A stretch of DNA of 13,853 nucleotides from Pseudonocardiales bacterium (GCA_025965875.1 JAOPWD010000338.1:1-13853); one strand, 5' to 3'. Counted from the stretch's first letter, positions 1-9,592 are shown. Numbers and translations are program-made. Notes: generated by a model not told the origin, from the sequence alone.

Positions 1-69
1 GGTTGGCTTCACAAAGGAGTCGGTCGAGCCCTCGTTTTGTGCGGCGACCGCGCGGGCGGTGCGCTCCGC

Positions 70-111
70 TGAGCGTCTGGACTTGTATTGAGTAATACGG
101 CGACGGGTTAC
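70..111 (-). promoter_or_regulatory. Copy 4 of the conserved GTAACCC-N7-TATT promoter-like module, oriented leftward (its target gene would start at or beyond the window's left edge)
   Basis: The reverse complement of 70-111 reads GTAACCCgtcgccgTATTACTCAATACAAGTCCAGACGCTC. This nearly matches the site at 7336-7376 (GTAACCCgccgctcTATTAGTCAGTACAAGTCCAGATGCTC) over about 40 nt. Confidence 0.45.
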
Positions 112-179
112 AACATGAGCGCTGAAACAAATCCGGGAGCGTGAACATCGCAGGCAAGGTCACGGCGCTGCGCTCGTGC

Positions 180-1521: not shown

Positions 1522-1549
1522 GTCACCTAGGAATAGGAGGAGGGGTTAC
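1521..1549 (-). promoter_or_regulatory. Copy 2 of the GTAACCC-N7-TATT module, immediately upstream of the ECF sigma gene (candidate autoregulated promoter)
   Basis: The minus strand reads GTAACCCctcctccTATTcctagGTGACATG. GTAACCC is at 1549-1543 and TATT at 1535-1532. The -35-like element and the 7-nt spacing match the copies at 4560 and 7336. Confidence 0.5.
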
Positions 1550-2093
1550 ACCACGGCAGCCGGCGCTGAGTTCCAGTTCGCCTGCGGCTGCGTGTCACCG
1601 GTGCGGGCGGAGCCTGCGCGCATCAGCTCAACGGTGTCGGGTCTTGAGTTCGCGGCGGAGACCGCCTGCGCCCGTCGAGCCGAGGACATCCCGACGATCA
1701 TCGCGACCTGATCGTGATCAGAGTGGCCTCGACAATCAAGGCCAGGGTGCCCACCCAGTCGGAGGCACTGGAAGCAATAGGCGTCGCCGCGGCAGCTGTC
1801 CGGCGGCGCGTCGGCCCGCTCGGGCCGCCACTGGCCATGGCGATGACCATTGCCAGCGAACTACTGCACCCACTGCGCACATGATCAACGCGACCCGCCG
1901 CGGAACAACTCTGCGCTGAATCCATCGACAACGTGATGACGACGGCGACGCCGTGCGCACGAAGGCGTTTGTCACCGCTGGCGAGCCGCGGCCCCATCAT
2001 CACACTGTCGCCGTCGTCGTCACCGTGCCGCCCGATTCGCCCGACCTTCGTCCTCACACTGAACGTCGCCGTCGTCCTCATCCAGCGTGTCGG

Positions 2094-2966: not shown

Positions 2967-3572
2967 ATGACGACGGACACCTCCGCTGTTCGGGCAGCAA
3001 AGCCCGACCAGTCCGCTGTGCCCGTCGGCGACTGGCGCGTCGACCCGGTGCGATCGCACGCATCGTTTACGGCACGCGTCGCCGGCAGGTCTGTTCGGGG
3101 TCGGTTGCCCTTGAGCGGAGCAGCGATCGTGACCGCTTCGGTCGAGGACTCAGCAGCACATCTGACTGCCATGACCAGCGAGGTGAGCACTGGGAATCGC
3201 ATGCTTGACCGGCTGCTCGCCGGTCCTGGCTTCCTAGACGTCGAGGATCACCCGGAGATCAACTTCCGGACGCAGATGCTGGTCTGCGTCCCGACCGGGT
3301 GGAGGGCCATCGGACACCTGCAGGTCAAGGGAACCGACCACCCGATCGTGTGTGAGCTCGACGCCGACCTGCGCCACCCGAAACCAGGAGAGGCTGGGGT
3401 GACGCTCACTGGCCGGTGGGTACTTGACTCGACCTGGATCACCAGCCAACGGATTCCGGCGATGTCCCGCCGCGTCGCCATGAGCTGCTCGGTCGTCCTC
3501 GACCGCGCGATCGAGGTCGCTGACAGCGAACTCGCATCTGCGCATAGATGGCTTTGCCGCAGATGCGACTAG
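2967..3572 (+). CDS. YceI-like family protein (polyisoprenoid-binding beta-barrel)
   Basis: SD GAAGGAG lies 6 nt upstream of the ATG. The translation carries the YceI signature: W.VDP..S...F......G..V.G......A....S..TG....D..L.....FLDVEDHPEI.F. Confidence 0.8.
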   Translation: MTTDTSAVRAAKPDQSAVPVGDWRVDPVRSHASFTARVAGRSVRGRLPLSGAAIVTASVEDSAAHLTAMTSEVSTGNRMLDRLLAGPGFLDVEDHPEINFRTQMLVCVPTGWRAIGHLQVKGTDHPIVCELDADLRHPKPGEAGVTLTGRWVLDSTWITSQRIPAMSRRVAMSCSVVLDRAIEVADSELASAHRWLCRRCD

Positions 3573-3988
3573 GGCATCGCCGAATGCTCGGGGCGGGGGC
3601 CGCTGGCAGTGACCCCTCCGGACAGCGCCCGACGGGCACCGCGACGTCCGATCATCGAACTGAGCCGGCCGAGCAGTCGGACGGAAGACCTGAGGATCCG
3701 GTCATTCGGCGGTGCTGGCGGGCGTTTCACAGTCTGACCCAGCTTGGCTTTCCGCGGCGCTTTCCGATCGTTCAGTTCCCGAACGTCCCGCTCCTGACGG
3801 CCTGGATCGCTGGCTGGGCTCAGCACTTCGTAGCCGCAGCTGGCCGTCCGTACCTGACCTCGGTGGTCTATCTGGCGATGACCGTGTGGGCCTACGAAGA
3901 ACTTGTCCACGGCTCCAACTGGCTCCGTCAGCTGCTCGGCGGTGCGTTCATGATCATCCTTACGGTCCGGGTTGCGTACGCCGTGTGA
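3548..3988 (+). CDS. Possible small membrane protein (start uncertain; only the C-terminal roughly 90 aa shows strong coding bias)
   Basis: High GC3 and hydrophobic segments (LLTAWIAGWAQHFVAAAG; LTSVVYLAMTVWAYEEL; LLGGAFMIILTVRVAYAV) in the 3' half. The N-terminal third has weaker GC3, so the start is probably internal. Confidence 0.35.
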   Translation: MALPQMRLGHRRMLGAGAAGSDPSGQRPTGTATSDHRTEPAEQSDGRPEDPVIRRCWRAFHSLTQLGFPRRFPIVQFPNVPLLTAWIAGWAQHFVAAAGRPYLTSVVYLAMTVWAYEELVHGSNWLRQLLGGAFMIILTVRVAYAV

Positions 3989-4074
3989 GGTCAACAATGA
4001 CGAGTGAGTTCGATCTGTCGCGGCGTGTAGCCATGCCGCGAGCAACGTGTCTTGGACAGTGGTAGCCGTAACTT

Positions 4075-4459
4075 TTCGTGTCCGCTGCCGGCCGTACAAG
4101 CCGCGAGCTTGGCGGCCCGCAGGTGGCCGACGTCGACGGAGCCGATGCTCTGGAGAATTGTCCGGTCCCGCCCTGGACGGTGAAGGTGCGAAGGCAACCG
4201 TCGAGCCGTCGTCGGCCTGAAGCATGCGTTTGACCGGGCCGTTGTAGTTGGGAACGTCAGCGTTCATGAACACCCAGGACGGGTTTCCGCGGTACGCGAC
4301 GATCTGGCCCAGGACCTGACCATCGGCGATTTGGAAGGTTCCGGTGCGCAGCGCGTTGAGGCCGCCTGACGCCCCGTATGACGTACTTCGTCGCACTCCC
4401 GGTCTCCCGGCGCGGGCACGCTGACGGGCACCGCCGCGGTTGACCGCGACTTCCTGCAC
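4075..4459 (-). pseudogene. Decayed paralogous fragment of the anti-sigma factor's C-terminal extracytoplasmic domain (frameshifted)
   Basis: Minus-frame translations show LNALRTGTFQIADGQVLGQIVAYRGNPSWVFMNADVPNYNGPVKRMLQADDGSTVAF (frame A) and SIGSVDVGHLRAAKLAAC (frame B). Both match DALRTGTFLTDDGQVLGQIVAYRGSPSWVFMNVAVPNYNGKVKCMLQVDDGSTVAF...SIGSVDVGHLRGAKLV of the 260-931 gene. The DNA aligns at about 80% to 300-560 with at least two 1-nt deletions (for example cttggcgaa versus ctggagaa). Confidence 0.7.
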
Positions 4460-4548: not shown

Positions 4549-4590
4549 AGTTACGCCGCGTAACCCGCGGCCGTATTAGTCAGCGAACAC
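4549..4590 (+). promoter_or_regulatory. Copy 1 of the GTAACCC-N7-TATTAGTCAG module upstream of the PAP2-like gene, overlapped by a 15-bp palindrome GTTACGCcGCGTAAC (4549-4563)
   Basis: GTAACCC at 4560-4566 and TATTAGTCAG at 4574-4583; the ATG is 80 nt downstream of GTAACC. The palindrome was verified base by base. Confidence 0.5.
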
Positions 4591-4639: not shown

Positions 4640-5953
4640 ATGCGCACAAGGACAAGAGCCCTCACCGGGCTCGCCGCCGCGGTGCTCGTCGGAACCACCG
4701 GAACCGCCTACGCAGCCACTCAGGGCGGCCATCCGTCTCCGGGCAAGGCGACTGGGTCATCGGCCCACGGATCCGGGCAGTCGATCGTCGACTGGAACCG
4801 GGAGCTCATTACTCTGCTCGGTACGCCGGGCCTGCAACCGGCGACGATCCAACCGACCCGAAGTTTCGCGATCCTGCAGGCGGCTGAGTACGACGCTGTG
4901 GTCTCCACGACACACATTGGCCAGCCGTACCTGTTCAAGGTGCCGGCGCCGCGCGACGCGCGAGCGGACGCGGCCGCCGACCAGGCAGCGCACGACGTAT
5001 TGACGGCGCTCTACCCGGCGGCTACGAGCCGCATCGACCAGCAACTCAGCACCGAACTCGCAGCGATCCCAGACAGCCATGGCAAACGCGACGGGCGCCG
5101 TGCCGGCGCGACGGTGGCACAGCTCCTCGTCGACCTACGGGCCTTCGACGGGTCCGCGGCGCCCCCGCCGCCGTTCGTCGCCGGCACCCAGCCGGGCGAC
5201 TACCGGCCGACACCGCCGAACTTCCCGACACCGGTCTTCACCGCCTGGGGCTCGATCACACCGTTCCTGCTCACCAGCGGTTCCCAGTTCCGTCCGACCG
5301 CGCCTGCGCCGGTGAGCAGCCCGACCTACGCCACCGCCCTGAACCAGGTCAAGGCCCTCGGGCAAGACAGCAGCACCGTCCGTACGGCTGATCAGACGAC
5401 GGTGGCCAAATTCTGGGGCTCGGCACCGATCTGGAACACCTGGAACCAGATCGCGCAAACGTTGCTGACTGACCAACACGCCAACCTGCAGCGCGCCGCC
5501 ACTGTGTTCGCGAACCTCGACCTCTCCGTCGCAGACGCGACCATCGCGCTGTACGACGCCAAGTACGTCTACCACGTGTGGCGACCAGTGACCGCGATCC
5601 GGGCCGGAAACAGCGGCTACAACTCGGACATCGCCTTCGACCCCAACGCACCCACCTGGAACCCGTTGGCGGTCACCGCCGCCGATCCTTCCTACCCCGG
5701 CGCACACAGCACGATCAGTGCAGCGGCCGCAACCGTGCTCGTCGCGTCCTTCGGCAAGCACCAACCGATCACGGTGACGTCGGACAAGATGCCCGGTGTG
5801 GTCCGCACCTTCACCAACGTGCAAGCAGCGGCGGTCGAGGCAGGATTTAGCCGCATCCTCGCCGGCCAGCACACCGCCCTCGAGGACCAAGCCGGCCAGC
5901 AGCTCGGCCACCGGGTCGCCACGTTCGCACTGCATGAACTAAACGCGGGTTAG
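4640..5953 (+). CDS. Secreted PAP2-superfamily / vanadium-dependent haloperoxidase-like (acid phosphatase-like) protein
   Basis: SD AAGAGGA. N-terminal signal peptide (MRTRTRALTGLAAAVLVGTTGTAYAA). Three PAP2 motifs are present: K-x6-RP (KYVYHVWRP), a PSGH-equivalent (SYPGAHS) and SR-x5-H (SRILAGQHTALED). The roughly 250-aa N-terminal extension is typical of bacterial V-HPO-like proteins. Confidence 0.85.
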   Translation: MRTRTRALTGLAAAVLVGTTGTAYAATQGGHPSPGKATGSSAHGSGQSIVDWNRELITLLGTPGLQPATIQPTRSFAILQAAEYDAVVSTTHIGQPYLFKVPAPRDARADAAADQAAHDVLTALYPAATSRIDQQLSTELAAIPDSHGKRDGRRAGATVAQLLVDLRAFDGSAAPPPPFVAGTQPGDYRPTPPNFPTPVFTAWGSITPFLLTSGSQFRPTAPAPVSSPTYATALNQVKALGQDSSTVRTADQTTVAKFWGSAPIWNTWNQIAQTLLTDQHANLQRAATVFANLDLSVADATIALYDAKYVYHVWRPVTAIRAGNSGYNSDIAFDPNAPTWNPLAVTAADPSYPGAHSTISAAAATVLVASFGKHQPITVTSDKMPGVVRTFTNVQAAAVEAGFSRILAGQHTALEDQAGQQLGHRVATFALHELNAG

Positions 5954-6035
5954 GCCGACATCGGCTGACCCACTTCCTGAGCGGGTGGGTGGGCCGCTGA
6001 TTCCTAGCAAGCCAACCAATTCACGAGGAGCAACT

Positions 6036-7175
6036 ATGAAATCCGTCACACGCCTGGCGTCCGCGCTTGCAGTAGTCGCCGCCGTCTCCGTCGGCCTGTC
6101 CGCAGCGGCGACACCCGCCTCCGCCAGGCAAGCCATCGCCAAGCGGGTTTACAAGCAGACCAACCTTGTCTCCGACATTCCCGGACTGGCCGCCCACACC
6201 GACCCCAACCTGCGTAACGCGTGGGGCACCTCCACCGGCCCGGGCCTGCCGATCTGGGTTTCCGACAATGCCTCCGGGGTCGCCACGCTCTACGACGGGC
6301 AGGGCAACCCGGAGCCGGGGTCAGGCGCCAAACAGCTTGTGGTCACGATCCCGGCGCCCCCGTCCGCAGGAACTGGAGCTGTCGGCGCACCGGACGGCAC
6401 GGTCTTCAACCCGACGGCCGGTGGCTTCGTTGTGTCGAAGGACGGCGTGTCCGACTCGGCCCGATTCCTGTTCGCTACCGAAGACGGCACGATCGCCGGC
6501 TGGTCGCCGAACGTCGACCCCACCCACGCGGTGCTCGCCGTGGACAGGTCGACCATGACCGATCCCGCCGGGGACGTCGGCGCGTTGTACAAGGGTCTCG
6601 CCCTCGTCAACACCGCAGCGGGCAAGTTCCTCTACGCCACCAACTTCCGGTTCGGCACCGTCGACGTGTTCGACAGCAACTTCGAATTGGTGACCAGTTT
6701 TACCGATCCCACCATCCGTGGCGGCTTCGCGCCCTTCGGCATTCACAACATCGGCGGCGACCTGTACGTCACCTTCGCCAAGCAAGATGCCGCCAAGCAC
6801 GATGACGCCGCGGGACCCGGCCGCGGCTTCGTGGACGTCTTCTCACCTAACGGAGATCTGTTGAAGCGGCTTGCCAGTCGAGGCACACTCAACTCACCCT
6901 GGGCCGTGACGCTCGCGCCGTCCACGTTCGGAGCGTTTGCTGGCGACATCCTTGTCGGCAACTTCGGTGATGGTCGGATCAATGCCTTCAAGCCGACGAC
7001 CGGTCGGTTCCTCGGTCAGCTTCGAAGCTCTCACGGCGCGATCACGATTCCTGGGCTCTGGGGCTTGCGATTCCCGACCGGCTCACTCAACGTCACGCCC
7101 AACGCGCTGTACTTCACCGCAGGGCCCAACGACGAGGCCGATGGGCTGTTAGGAGTCATCACGCCGGCCGCGTGA
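6036..7175 (+). CDS. Secreted beta-propeller protein (NHL/YncE-like repeats), probably TIGR03118 family
   Basis: SD GAGGAG precedes ATG 6036, and the signal peptide is MKSVTRLASALAVVAAVSVGLSAAATPASA. The listed ORF start at 5985 is probably an over-extension. The N-terminal NLVSD...DPNLRNAWG motif and repeated Gly/aromatic blade-like segments are visible. Family assignment is from memory only. Confidence 0.75.
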   Translation: MKSVTRLASALAVVAAVSVGLSAAATPASARQAIAKRVYKQTNLVSDIPGLAAHTDPNLRNAWGTSTGPGLPIWVSDNASGVATLYDGQGNPEPGSGAKQLVVTIPAPPSAGTGAVGAPDGTVFNPTAGGFVVSKDGVSDSARFLFATEDGTIAGWSPNVDPTHAVLAVDRSTMTDPAGDVGALYKGLALVNTAAGKFLYATNFRFGTVDVFDSNFELVTSFTDPTIRGGFAPFGIHNIGGDLYVTFAKQDAAKHDDAAGPGRGFVDVFSPNGDLLKRLASRGTLNSPWAVTLAPSTFGAFAGDILVGNFGDGRINAFKPTTGRFLGQLRSSHGAITIPGLWGLRFPTGSLNVTPNALYFTAGPNDEADGLLGVITPAA

Positions 7176-7188
7176 TCCGGGTCCAGCT

Positions 7189-7232
7189 GAATGTGCAGGG
7201 TGCGGCTGCTCAACGCCGCACTCTGCACATTC
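7189..7232 (+). terminator. Strong stem-loop 14 nt after the stop at 7175 (18-bp stem with one G-U, 8-nt loop); candidate intrinsic terminator without a U-tract
   Basis: GAATGTGCAGGGTGCGGC-tgctcaac-GCCGCACTCTGCACATTC; the pairing was checked position by position. Confidence 0.55.
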
Positions 7233-7335
7233 GTGGCGTCGAATCCCGCGGTCGAGCACTTCTGCCCAGCCCGATCTCAGTGGCGCGATATCGGCTGTCG
7301 CAGCCGGTTCCGGGTCACCCTCGGGACTCGGCCCT

Positions 7336-7391
7336 GTAACCCGCCGCTCTATTAGTCAGTACAAGTCCAGATGCTCCGCTCCGAGCGGGCG
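7336..7391 (+). promoter_or_regulatory. Copy 3 of the GTAACCC-N7-TATTAGTCAG module plus a conserved leader, upstream of the Lipoprotein_15-like gene
   Basis: GTAACCC at 7336-7342 and TATTAGTCAG at 7350-7359. The following TACAAGTCCAGATGCTC is shared with the left-edge copy. The ATG is 94 nt downstream. Confidence 0.5.
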
Positions 7392-7429
7392 GCCAGTCCC
7401 CGCCGCATCATTGCGAAGGAATTGAGGTC

Positions 7430-7957
7430 ATGATGATCAGAACCAAACGACTCCCGCTGTATGTCGCCGGCGGTGCTGGGCTCAGCGCGCTAGCGGTTCT
7501 CGGGCTCACGCTGAGCCAATCCGGCTCGAGTGCCGCCGGGGTGTCCGCGTCGCCGTCCTCGACCGTGGTTCAGACCCGCGCCAGCAACCTCGGGCAGATC
7601 CTCGTCGATGCCCAGGGCCGCACGATGTACCTGTTCGCCAAGGACACCGGCCCCGCCTCCACCTGCGTAGGCGCCTGCACGTCAGCCTGGCCACCGGTGC
7701 CAGTGTCGGCCGCGCCGCACGCCGCCGGCGGGGCGTCGGCTTCGGCACTCGGGGTGATCGGCTCGGGCAGTCGGCGGCAACTGAGCTACGCCGGGCACCC
7801 GGTGTACTACTTCGCCGGAGACAGCAAGGCCGGACAGACCCACGGCCAGGCGCTTAACGAGTTCGGCGCCAAATGGTACGTCCTGAACTCAGCAGGAGCC
7901 GCGATCGTCAAAGCCCCAAGCAACGCCGGCAACAGCGGCGGAGGGTACGGCTACTAG
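7430..7957 (+). CDS. Secreted protein with two copies of the Lipoprotein_15-type 'secreted repeat of unknown function' (COG4315-like)
   Basis: Signal peptide, no lipobox Cys. Two repeats are visible: LGQILVDAQGRTMYLFAKDTGPASTCVGACTSAWPPV and LSYAGHPVYYFAGDSKAGQTHGQALNEFGAKWYVL. A GAAGGA-like SD precedes the ATG. Confidence 0.8.
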   Translation: MMIRTKRLPLYVAGGAGLSALAVLGLTLSQSGSSAAGVSASPSSTVVQTRASNLGQILVDAQGRTMYLFAKDTGPASTCVGACTSAWPPVPVSAAPHAAGGASASALGVIGSGSRRQLSYAGHPVYYFAGDSKAGQTHGQALNEFGAKWYVLNSAGAAIVKAPSNAGNSGGGYGY

Positions 7958-7984: not shown

Positions 7985-8227
7985 ATGACCTGGGCTCATG
8001 ATTCTCCGATCGGCCTCGCCGGCCGGATTGTCACGGCAACCCGGGGCGGGCAGGGCACCGGTGAGGTTGAGCTTCACATCCGGGGCGGCACGGAGGTTTT
8101 CATCGCCCACTCAAACGACCCACTGCCGGTCGGCGCCGCAGTGATCGTGTTTGCCACCTTGGGCCCGCGCACGCTCGTGGTCTTTCCCTGGGCTGACCCC
8201 CTCGACAACATCCTCGACCTGAAATAG
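7985..8227 (+). CDS. NfeD-like C-terminal OB-fold protein (short form without a TM segment)
   Basis: 80 aa. GRIVTATRGGQGTGEVELHIRGGTEVFIAHSNDPLPVGAAVIVFATLGPRTLVV matches the NfeD/YuaF beta-barrel pattern. It is in frame with the upstream gene and starts right after its TAG, so no upstream extension is possible. Sits directly upstream of the flotillin gene. Confidence 0.65.
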   Translation: MTWAHDSPIGLAGRIVTATRGGQGTGEVELHIRGGTEVFIAHSNDPLPVGAAVIVFATLGPRTLVVFPWADPLDNILDLK

Positions 8228-8257: not shown

Positions 8258-9592
8258 ATGTTCGGATACCACGTTCCCGCTCCAGACGAAGCGATGCTGA
8301 TCTCGGGAGGCAAGGCCACAGCCTCCGACGCACCGTTCAGGGTGGTCACCGGACGAGGCGCCTACGTCACGCCAATGTTTCGCAAGGCCCGATTCATCAC
8401 CTTGTCCATGTCCGAAGCCGAGGTCGAAGAGAACTGCGTGACGAAACAGGGCATCGCGCTCAAGGTCAAAGCCGTCATCGCCTTCAAGGTGGGCAACGAC
8501 ACGGAGTCCATCGTCAACGCCTCGCAGCGATTCCTATCCGACCAGTCCCAGATGTCGGTACTGACCGGCCGGATCTTCTCCGGCCACCTTCGCTCGATCA
8601 TCGGCTCGATGACCGTCGAGGAGATCGTCACCGAGCGGCAGAAGCTCGCGTCCGAGGTGCTGGACGGATCCAAGGGAGAGATGGCCAAGATCGGTCTCAC
8701 GGTCGACGCGCTCCAGATCCAGTCCATCGACGACATGGGTCTCGGATACGTCGCGGCCATGGCAGCGCCGCACAACGCGGCTATCCAGCGAGCAGCAAAG
8801 GTCGCAGCCTCCCAGGCCGATCAAGCCGCCGCCGAGGCCCACCAGGCGTCCCTGCGAGCTCAGGCCGAATACGCCCGCCAAACCGAAGTAGTCCAAGCCC
8901 AATACGCGGCCGACGTGGAAGCAGCGAAGTCCGCGGCTGCAGCTACGGCGGCGGCCGCCGCCCAGGCGTCGGCTCGAAACCTTGCCAACTACGAGGCCGA
9001 GACCGCAGTCACCCGGTCCAAAGCTGCCCAGATAGCCGCCGAAGCACAGCAGGAATCCGACCGCAACCAGGCCGACTTCGCCCGCCAAACCGCGGTCGCC
9101 AAAGCCACGTTCGCAGCCGAAACCCAAGCGGCTCAAGCCAAAGCAGACCAATCAGGACCCCTCGCCCACGCCGTGGCGCAGCAGCAGGTAATCGACGCCC
9201 AAACGGGCCTAGCCCAGCAGGAGGCCGAACTGACTCGCCAAACGCTGGTCTCCACCGTCGTACGCCCGGCCGAAGCCGACGCGGAGAGAGTCAAGATCCT
9301 GGCCGCAGCCGACGCCGAGCGGACCAAGATCTTGGCCGAGGCGGCCCAGTCGCACAACCGCGTTGCACTCGATCAACAACTCATCGCCCAACTCCCGCTC
9401 ATCGTGGAGAAGGCCGCACAGGGTTTGGCCGGCTCCCACCTGACCGTGCTCAACGGATCTGAGGGAGTTACGGAAGTCGTGTCATCGCTGGTCGGTCAAG
9501 GTCTGGCCATCCTGGACTCGATCCGGCATGGCGTAGCCGGCTCGAGTTCATCCAATGGCCTCCGACCGACCTCGCCGGCAATCAAGGCATGA
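8258..9592 (+). CDS. Flotillin-like SPFH/band-7 domain protein with an Ala/Gln/Glu-rich coiled-coil C-terminus
   Basis: Strong SD AAGGAG 7 nt upstream. The N-terminal PDEAMLISGGK...YVTPMFRKARFITLSMSEAEVEENCVTKQGIALKVKAVIAFKV aligns to the flotillin (FloT/YuaG-like) SPFH domain. An in-frame stop 33 nt upstream means the usual N-terminal membrane hairpin is absent. The C-terminal EA-rich repeat region is typical of flotillins. Confidence 0.85.
   Translation: MFGYHVPAPDEAMLISGGKATASDAPFRVVTGRGAYVTPMFRKARFITLSMSEAEVEENCVTKQGIALKVKAVIAFKVGNDTESIVNASQRFLSDQSQMSVLTGRIFSGHLRSIIGSMTVEEIVTERQKLASEVLDGSKGEMAKIGLTVDALQIQSIDDMGLGYVAAMAAPHNAAIQRAAKVAASQADQAAAEAHQASLRAQAEYARQTEVVQAQYAADVEAAKSAAAATAAAAAQASARNLANYEAETAVTRSKAAQIAAEAQQESDRNQADFARQTAVAKATFAAETQAAQAKADQSGPLAHAVAQQQVIDAQTGLAQQEAELTRQTLVSTVVRPAEADAERVKILAAADAERTKILAEAAQSHNRVALDQQLIAQLPLIVEKAAQGLAGSHLTVLNGSEGVTEVVSSLVGQGLAILDSIRHGVAGSSSSNGLRPTSPAIKA

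Follow-up and report, generated by a model that had tools for sequence, protein, structure and literature searches.

A promoter-leader cassette shared by two Lipoprotein_15 genes beside an ECF sigma/anti-sigma pair in a Pseudonocardiales bacterium

The window analyzed here, the whole stretch of 13,853 nt of GC-rich actinobacterial DNA from a Pseudonocardiales bacterium (GCA_025965875.1 JAOPWD010000338.1:1-13853), carries two copies of a promoter-leader cassette, one at its left edge on the minus strand and one on the plus strand, each ahead of a gene of the Lipoprotein_15 family. The gene to the left of position 1 is referred to as lipoL and the gene at 7430-7957 (plus strand; 175 amino acids, Lipoprotein_15/COG4315) as lipoR; the latter matched Pfam PF03640 with an E value of 2.2e-26 and two repeats. 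On the minus strand, the window also encodes a sigma factor of the extracytoplasmic function (ECF) type, 197 amino acids long (928-1521, ATG at 1521), with Sigma70_r2 and r4_2 domains, and its cognate anti-sigma factor of 223 amino acids (260-931), which has one transmembrane segment and a conserved C-terminal extracytoplasmic domain. A PAP2/vanadium-haloperoxidase-like gene (4640-5953) and a gene for a TIGR03118 protein (5985-7175) precede lipoR, which is probably co-transcribed with an open reading frame (ORF) of 80 amino acids (7985-8227) and a flotillin-like gene (8258-9592). The order of lipoR, the 80-residue ORF and a Band_7 gene was kept in L037, L041 and L043-50.

The start of the anti-sigma gene overlaps the stop of the sigma gene, and the two were adjacent in every locus found. 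The anti-sigma factor gave weak NCBIfam anti-sigma matches and no informative match to PDB or Pfam; its 531 homologues all came from metagenomes or metagenome-assembled genomes (MAGs). The top family match of the sigma factor was the NCBIfam BldN-family model, below threshold (76.9 bits vs. a cut-off of 206 bits), and its best PDB match was the BldN structure 6dxo. It carries an Arg-rich N-terminal extension of 27 residues, the length of which is conserved.

According to a preliminary description made from the window's sequence, the left edge and the lipoR promoter match far beyond a core motif, and both this match and the sequences quoted for it held up. The reverse complement of 71-111 (GTAACCCGTCGCCGTATTACTCAATACAAGTCCAGACGCTC) and 7336-7376 (GTAACCCGCCGCTCTATTAGTCAGTACAAGTCCAGATGCTC) were identical at 35 of 41 bases. 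A 41-nt pattern with six free positions fits both copies, and such a pair occurred in none of 200 dinucleotide-preserving shuffles of the window. A repeat search returned the same region as inverted arms (68-112 and 7335-7379; 45 nt, 84% complementary), and local alignment recovered the identical 45-nt block. The motif GTAACCCGNNGNNNTATTANTCA was present at 89-111 (minus), 4560-4582 (plus) and 7336-7358 (plus), i.e., in three copies vs. none expected; the short core GTAACCCG-N6-TATTA-N-TCA was likewise found at 4560-4582. A fourth, looser copy (GTAACCCCTCCTCCTATTCCTAG) immediately precedes the sigma gene, at 1549-1527 of the minus strand. The core common to the window copies is TGTAACC(C)-N8-TAT(T/C) (n = 4), and all four stand in sense orientation ahead of a gene or operon: the sigma operon, the PAP2-TIGR03118 pair, lipoR and lipoL. 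Motif positions are hereafter indexed from the G of GTAACC (index 1), which places the first T of TAT at index 15.

In the left cassette, the core motif of the lipoL promoter occupies 89-112 on the minus strand, with T-GTAACC (112; 111-106), N8, TATT (97-94) and ACTCA. It is followed at 71-87 by an extended block (index 25-41, TACAAGTCCAGACGCTC), which would comprise the transcription start at about 85-82 and the first 13 or so transcribed bases. The rest of the lipoL leader within the window runs from 70 to 1 and extends about 15 nt past position 1 to the ribosome-binding site (RBS) GAAATGAGGAATC and the ATG (L001 4696-4821, L002 1332-1457). In the right cassette, the core motif of the lipoR promoter (7335-7358, plus strand) consists of T-GTAACC (7336-7341), N8, TATT (7350-7353) and AGTCA, and the extended block (TACAAGTCCAGATGCTC) lies at 7360-7376, where, by analogy, transcription may start at about 7362-7365. 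The remaining lipoR leader (7377-7429) is homologous to lipoL leaders up to about 7410 (...GTCCCCGCCGCA), and its RBS region AGGAATTGAGGTC is native to lipoR orthologues. The cassette sits 94 nt ahead of an intact gene with its own RBS. Upstream of the right core motif, 7306-7334 (CCGGgTC...CTCGGCCcT) resembles the lipoL promoter flanks of L065, L021 and L007, matching lipoL of other lineages at 20-22 of 30 positions and the window's own lipoL at 16 of 30.

The motif before the sigma gene (1527-1550, minus strand), which would be autoregulatory, reads T-GTAACC-CCTCCTCC-TATT-CCTAG and is followed by GTGAC-ATG, whereas the one before the PAP2-like and TIGR03118 genes (4559-4582, plus strand), a putative third regulon promoter, has the core motif only; the latter is kept in L001, L003, L007 and L008. 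At the two cassette sites (1-400 and 7100-7500), no sigma-70-type promoter was found, nor, on either strand, any intrinsic terminator or GC-rich stem-loop with a U-run. A palindromic 11-mer, GCGCGATATCG, occurs upstream of both cassettes (180-192 and 7283-7295, about 75 and 46 nt away). As a candidate shared element, it had an alignment score of 22, a value that shuffles also reached (mean 19, maximum 29); it is probably a chance occurrence.

The sequence beyond position 1 was available from contigs of the same organism (L001-L006), reached via an exact-protein match of the anti-sigma factor. There, a minus-strand Lipoprotein_15 (PF03640) gene of 172-178 amino acids, annotated in L001, L002, L004 and L005, follows the anti-sigma gene and the left cassette, and it is succeeded by Abhydrolase and ABC1 genes. 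Its protein is 32% identical to that of lipoR (E 4e-15), and both end in a GYGY terminus. The paralogous minus-strand gene anticipated just past position 1 is thus present, as a paralogue of 7430-7957. In the lipoL leaders (L002 1360-1460, in part window 1-85 on the minus strand), a conserved pyrimidine tract (CGCCUUCUCG / ACUCCUUUG) was observed that could mask the GAGGAA Shine-Dalgarno sequence.

An alignment search with the anti-sigma factor yielded 28 related loci, one genome per species, from Jatrophihabitantaceae, Frankiales and Pseudonocardiales MAGs as well as Acidimicrobiales MAGs. The motif GTAAC(C/T)-N7/8-TAT(T/C) precedes the sigma gene in essentially all of them, and also several neighboring genes. 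In the window, the motif stops 5 nt before the sigma ATG (1549-1527), a layout repeated wherever a related locus has its upstream region intact. An unbiased count over the 28 loci gave 224 GTAACC hexamers, 85 of which had TATT (61) or TATC (24) exactly at index 15. By tblastn, a lipoL orthologue (46-88% identity) with an upstream motif was found in nearly every locus, Acidimicrobiia included, and lipoL is therefore a core target, with the left-edge copy as its promoter. The motif is missing from lipoR loci that lack this sigma factor. Together with the autoregulatory position of one copy, this co-occurrence suggests that the adjacent ECF sigma factor recognizes the shared core as its target promoter.

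The lipoL promoters of Actinomycetia relatives (L007, L008, L011, L014, L015, L021 and L116) have TATTA(C/G)TC(A/G)..A(C)AAG(T)CC in common, and their leaders are homologous. The same applies to L065 and L102, the two genuine hits among 65 matches of a metagenome-wide scan with the cassette pattern, the others being AT-rich chance matches. The promoters of lipoL in Acidimicrobiia have the core only, without the extended block. In L009 (1767-1900) and L012 (11386-11220, minus strand), a cassette of the lipoL type lies ahead of an unrelated conserved membrane-protein ORF, and between the two is what looks like a degenerate lipoL RBS and start (gaacgaggaac..., no ATG). The true lipoL of L012 is under a short promoter that lacks the extended block. 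The cassette seems to have been reused here a further time.

The second cassette in the window has a different distribution. Orthologues of lipoR are numerous (53-96% identity), and across the 28 genome loci none lies near this sigma factor. Most of the orthologue loci that were examined have lipoR at the end of an operon, where it lacks a separate promoter: the order is PAP2-Abhydrolase-ABC1-lipoR-Band_7 in L041 (81% identity), ABC1-lipoR in L037/38 (82%), L039/40 (75%) and L136 (72%), and sigma-partner-Abhydrolase-lipoR in L035 (71%), from Jatrophihabitans sp. DSM 45814. The gaps between lipoR and the preceding ABC1 or Abhydrolase genes are about 10 nt, or the genes overlap (L035-41, L136). 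In L135 (74%), lipoR follows a Band_7 gene after 186 nt, and the gap sequence is unrelated to the cassette. The motif TGTAACC-N8-TAT was absent from loci L035-L041, L135 and L136. Since lipoR orthologues elsewhere lack the cassette and lipoL widely carries it, the lipoR copy is lineage-specific, and it probably represents a copy of the lipoL promoter-leader.

Homology of the copied unit begins about 27 nt ahead of GTAACC and ends about 75 nt past it. Over 108 nt (78 nt preceded by 30 nt of upstream sequence), the positions at which the lipoR cassette matched a lipoL cassette numbered 83 for L065, 81 for L021 and 73 for its own genome. The copy has retained CTCGGCCT before GTAACC and the GCTCCGCTC..GAGC leader, both ancestral states; because the lipoL cassettes of L065 and L021 resemble it more than the one in the same genome does, it does not represent a fresh duplicate within that genome. 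The exact lipoR protein of the window was absent from the records, and a near-identical cluster member served to reach contigs of the window population, seven of eight of which had an identical lipoR cassette and the eighth three substitutions. A duplicated promoter-leader cassette, as initially proposed, is therefore supported as a homologous unit of about 100 nt of which the lipoL version is conserved in related genomes; the left-edge copy does have a gene downstream, and the similarity is more than a recent local duplication without conservation in relatives.

In a close relative (L042, 90% identity), lipoR is under a different promoter, TTGAACGT-N5-GTCTACTA-N3-GTGTTAGTAGTC. Apart from one base in the middle box, this is the autoregulatory leaderless promoter of a second ECF family, which has the canonical form TTGAACGT-N5-ATCTACTA-N3-GTGTTAGTAGTC|ATG in L035, L039 and L135 (sites at L035 3750-3880, L039 2481-2600 on the minus strand, L135 5180-5300 and L042 455-565) and the sigma factor of which neighbors BlaI/BlaR-like, PAP2, Abhydrolase, ABC1 and lipoR genes. 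Kinship of the two ECF families was considered and rejected, with only generic ECF similarity between the sigma factors (E 0.025) and no similarity between the partner proteins. As a near-identical second-family promoter drives lipoR in L042, this gene appears to have moved between two ECF regulons among close relatives. The lipoR leader of the window is collinear with that of L042 in its 3' part (GAGCGG..GTCCCCGCCGCA..AGGAATTGAGGTC) and lipoL-like in its 5' part, the junction lying near a shared TTAGT..TCAGT stretch. Recombination at this microhomology is one possibility for the copying; the copied unit showed no sign of a mobile element, of terminal repeats or of target duplications.

All 18 unique orthologous promoters (L007-L033, L116 and L125 included) have the ATG of the sigma gene at index 28-30, and the sigma ORF is 195-198 amino acids long wherever it is intact. 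Ahead of the conserved YL(H/R)xVD, neither the window lineage nor Acidimicrobiaceae has another in-frame ATG, GTG or TTG, and sigma codons 19-27 vary chiefly at third positions (entropies 0.54, 0.78 and 1.15). The sigma mRNA is probably leaderless, starting at or near the ATG at 1521. At least three other gene families start 12-13 nt past TAT, namely a zinc-finger anti-sigma-like protein, a sigma-4-only protein and an ATG/GTG orthologue pair, and the first starts of long ORFs form a sharp peak at TAT+12..15, with none near +20. As a separate observation, a leaderless ORF with an HxxxCxxC zinc-binding anti-sigma-like motif stands right after the anti-sigma gene in Acidimicrobiaceae (L019 10691, L022 10688, L023 4108, L032 10689, L033 10689), with its own copy of the promoter motif and its ATG at index 28.

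Because leaderless start codons lie at TAT+12..15 in the same promoter class, we infer a start at index 27-30, which in the lipoL and lipoR cassettes would be A28/A29 of CAAG. The sequence TACAAGTCCAGAYGCTC would then cover the discriminator, +1 and about 13 transcribed bases, with TAT at a normal position of about -14 to -11 and TGTAACC at about -29 to -23, so that GTAACC would be 7-8 bp closer to the start than the -35 of BldN, ShbA, SigD and SigF promoters. Among 83 unique sites, 76 have 8 nt between GTAACC and TAT, and the other seven have 7 nt. Provided that TAT is the -10, for which the leaderless starts argue, this spacing falls short of the 16-18 nt that separate the -35 and -10 of ECF promoters. 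The second ECF family offers an internal control, with 33 nt from AAC to the leaderless ATG vs. 26 nt here. Tentatively, and with slightly less than even confidence, we propose that this sigma family uses a non-canonical layout in which a -35-like TGTAACC stands 8 nt before a (C/G)TAT(T/C) -10, about one helical turn closer than usual.

The competing arrangement keeps canonical geometry, with GTAACC as the -35, xG..RA at index 22-28 as the -10 (AGGTGA for the sigma gene, AGCGAA for PAP2, AGTACA/AATACA for the two Lipoprotein_15 genes), TAT(T/C) as a conserved spacer element and a start at about index 34-36; the whole 41-nt block would then span -35 to about +5 of a single promoter. Related actinobacterial and alphaproteobacterial ECF factors (BldN, ShbA, SigD and Caulobacter SigF) do use (C)GTAAC(C)-N16-18-CG(A/T)(T/A)(GA), the domain lengths and linker of the sigma factor are ordinary, G occupies index 24 in 52 of 76 sites with purines prevailing at index 27-29, and conservation of the lipoL and lipoR cassettes stops near index 41, all of which would fit. 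However, a start at 34-36 would remove the only available start codon of the sigma ORF, and leaderless-type starts peak at TAT+12..15 rather than at about +20. Moreover, the canonical -10 position (index 22-28) holds only 0.3-0.6 bit per position, as against a TAT coupled to GTAACC in 85 of 224 cases, and GTGA at index 24 is mostly limited to sigma-gene promoters. Canonical geometry with an invariant TAT in its spacer would be almost as unusual as the short spacing; we regard it as possible but doubtful, and favor the short-spacer model over it by roughly two to one.

The bases beyond the core could alternatively act at the RNA level, as a stem-loop, riboswitch-like element or translational attenuator shared by both Lipoprotein_15 mRNAs, and a conserved RNA element in the 5' untranslated region had been suggested from GC hairpins drawn in both leaders. 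The left hairpin, CGCTC-AGCG-GAGCG (75-62, minus strand), is a feasible 5-bp stem, whereas the right one, CGCTC-C-GAGCG, has a 1-nt loop and cannot form; CCGCU-CCG-AGCGG (about 7376-7388) would be a feasible alternative there. A GC hairpin can be drawn soon after AAGTCCAGA in most cassettes, with a sequence differing by lineage. In lipoL leaders, GUCCAG can pair with CUGGAC about 55 nt downstream (81.5% of cells paired vs. 20-40% with the partner slid), L102 carries a GUCCAC/GUGGAC double change, and the pyrimidine tract (CCUUCUC / ACUCCUU) could mask the Shine-Dalgarno sequence. Yet Rfam returned no match at the gathering threshold over the whole window and, at E ≤ 1, none on 7250-7460 and only a chance match (E = 0.91) in the lipoL leader. 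Neither the leaders nor 38-nt start-proximal windows folded more stably than dinucleotide shuffles, with z values of +0.8 to -2.0 (mean -0.57). RNAalifold found no consensus pairs across 12 cassettes; for the full lipoL leaders (n = 9), its consensus comprised just two hairpins of 4 bp, both invariant. Covariation in the aligned leaders was non-significant, both for the hairpin (65.5% of cells paired vs. 61.5% when shuffled; 106 of 500 shuffles reached the observed value) and, in nine lipoL leaders, for the GUCCAG/CUGGAC helix (122 of 500); the masking tract had no statistical support in the same nine. L102 lacks the hairpin altogether, and the lipoR leader lacks both the distal helix partner and the tract complementary to the Shine-Dalgarno sequence, yet keeps the block. 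The RNA hypothesis for the shared block is thus not supported, and we consider it improbable.

Divergence between the two window copies is uneven: index 1-24 is identical at 19 of 24 positions and index 25-41 (71-87 vs. 7360-7376) at 16 of 17, vs. 16 of 30 in the 30 nt upstream and 22 of 37 at index 42-78. The decay of the flanks to 53-59% against 85% in the block points to selection on the promoter and start region, under which index 1-41 would have been held while the rest of the copied unit drifted. This contrast, the ancestral states kept in the copy and lost from the lipoL promoter of the same genome, the near-uniform cassette in contigs of different samples, and its sensible distance (94 nt) from an intact gene with its own RBS together make it very improbable that the similarity is neutral, i.e., a recent local duplication or gene conversion that has not yet decayed. 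In favor of such an event is the further segmental duplication that the locus does show at 4104-4356 (minus strand), a copy of about 250 nt of the 3' part of the anti-sigma gene (307-561; 82-94% identity). It lies inside an ORF at 3569-4459 in three segments with offsets of 3797, 3796 and 3795; since these differ in steps of 1 nt, it is a frameshifted pseudogene fragment, and it adjoins, and diverges from, the PAP2 promoter. Selection on the block could also be ascribed to an operator at index 19-41 for a second DNA-binding regulator that co-controls the Lipoprotein_15 genes only, as the block is limited to promoters of the lipoL and lipoR type, is absent from the sigma and PAP2 promoters, and was kept at 16 of 17 positions between paralogous copies with decayed flanks. 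Against this, neither dyad symmetry nor a direct repeat is present in the block, a consistently co-occurring regulator gene is lacking, A28, G30 and C32 are the only invariant positions among lipoL orthologues, and the lipoL promoters of Acidimicrobiia lack the block; an operator of this kind therefore seems hardly likely.

The explanation we favor, at a probability of roughly 0.75, is that the block consists of the promoter of the adjacent sigma factor, its start region and the first leader bases, copied from lipoL to lipoR. The original cassette would drive lipoL as a core member of the regulon, and a unit of about 100 nt would have been copied before lipoR, an anciently diverged Lipoprotein_15 paralogue, recruiting it and probably also the 80-residue ORF and the flotillin-like gene into the regulon. 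When the membrane-bound anti-sigma factor senses its signal, the sigma factor would be released, and RNA polymerase carrying it would bind TGTAACC(C)-N8-(C/G)TAT(T/C) and start about 13-14 nt past the first T of TAT, switching on the sigma operon, PAP2-TIGR03118, lipoL and lipoR jointly. The conserved TACAAGTCCAGAYGCTC beyond the core would owe its retention to its part in a tuned promoter, of which it forms the discriminator, the start site and the first transcribed bases, and not to an RNA fold.

Several points weigh against this explanation. Dependence on the sigma factor is deduced from co-occurrence and the autoregulatory position only, and all members of the sigma family come from uncultured MAGs or metagenome contigs. 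The 8-nt spacing is far below the 16-18 nt of characterized ECF promoters, so that the placement of the start site, or of GTAACC as the site of sigma domain 4, may be wrong. A start at index 28 leaves the conservation from +1 to +13 in need of a reason, for which promoter escape or 5'-end stability are guesses. Finally, the order of events at lipoR may have been a copy of the lipoL cassette followed by replacement with the second-sigma promoter seen in L042, or the reverse.

Within the flotillin-like gene, internal direct repeats were observed at 8828-9120 and 9265-9330 (86 nt at 72% identity; 33-nt tandem units), which probably reflect an Ala/Gln-rich repeat region of the protein.

For an ECF sigma/anti-sigma family that is widespread in soil Actinomycetia and Acidimicrobiia, the results define a probable target promoter together with a minimal regulon, the latter comprising the sigma operon, a COG4315 secreted protein, the PAP2/vanadium-haloperoxidase-like protein and the TIGR03118 protein. 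For annotation, TGTAACC-N8-TAT can be used to predict further targets. As an example of regulon rewiring, lipoR was found in three states among close relatives: at the promoterless end of an operon, under one ECF promoter, and under the copied promoter-leader of another. The odd spacing, if true, would be relevant to promoter recognition by ECF sigma factors, as it implies that sigma domain 4 is positioned in an unusual way or that GTAACC has a second reader, such as the Arg-rich 27-residue extension. The wider interest is modest and lies in the promoter swap of lipoR between two ECF regulons and in this unusual spacing of elements.

Autoregulated promoters of ECF group IV include CGTAAC-N16-CGTTGA of Streptomyces BldN, GTAAC-N16-18-CGAT of ShbA and of SigD in Mycobacterium and Corynebacterium, and GTAACC-N16-CGAA of Caulobacter SigF; a literature search for the motif or its spacing turned up only such canonical GTAAC(C)-N16-18 ECF promoters. 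The promoters described here resemble them in their bipartite motif with a GTAAC(C) upstream element, and in having one copy before the sigma-anti-sigma operon and more before a few genes for envelope or secreted proteins. They differ in placing (C/G)TAT(T/C) 8 nt past GTAACC instead of 16-18 nt and in holding little information at the canonical -10. The sigma-gene promoter has AGGTGA at N16 from GTAAC, while the lipoL, lipoR and PAP2 promoters fit the BldN/SigD/SigF form poorly, and the anti-sigma factor is unrelated to RsbN or RsdA.

In Bacillus subtilis, SigW-type promoters have a CGTA or CGTAT -10 with TGAAAC 16 nt upstream. Many sites of the present family read C(G/C)TAT(T/C), e.g., CCGTATTA before lipoL and PAP2, and so resemble the SigW-type CGTAT -10; their TAT element is at a normal distance of about 7-10 nt from the inferred start, but the element that contains AAC is closer than in SigW promoters by about one helical turn. 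As in leaderless mRNAs of actinobacteria, in which the start codon follows the -10 by 6-9 nt, an ATG or GTG stands at TAT+12..15 in the sigma gene and several other regulon genes, which have no Shine-Dalgarno sequence, in contrast to lipoL and lipoR, with leaders of about 65-95 nt and clear ribosome-binding sites. The second ECF family of relatives has this leaderless design too, there combined with canonical promoter geometry. The placing of a promoter-leader of about 100 nt from one regulon member before another gene agrees with known promoter duplication and swapping, with the difference that the recipient, lipoR, is a distant paralogue of the donor's gene. The cassette is thus ordinary biology of a known kind, an ECF-dependent promoter and the growth of a regulon by promoter copying.

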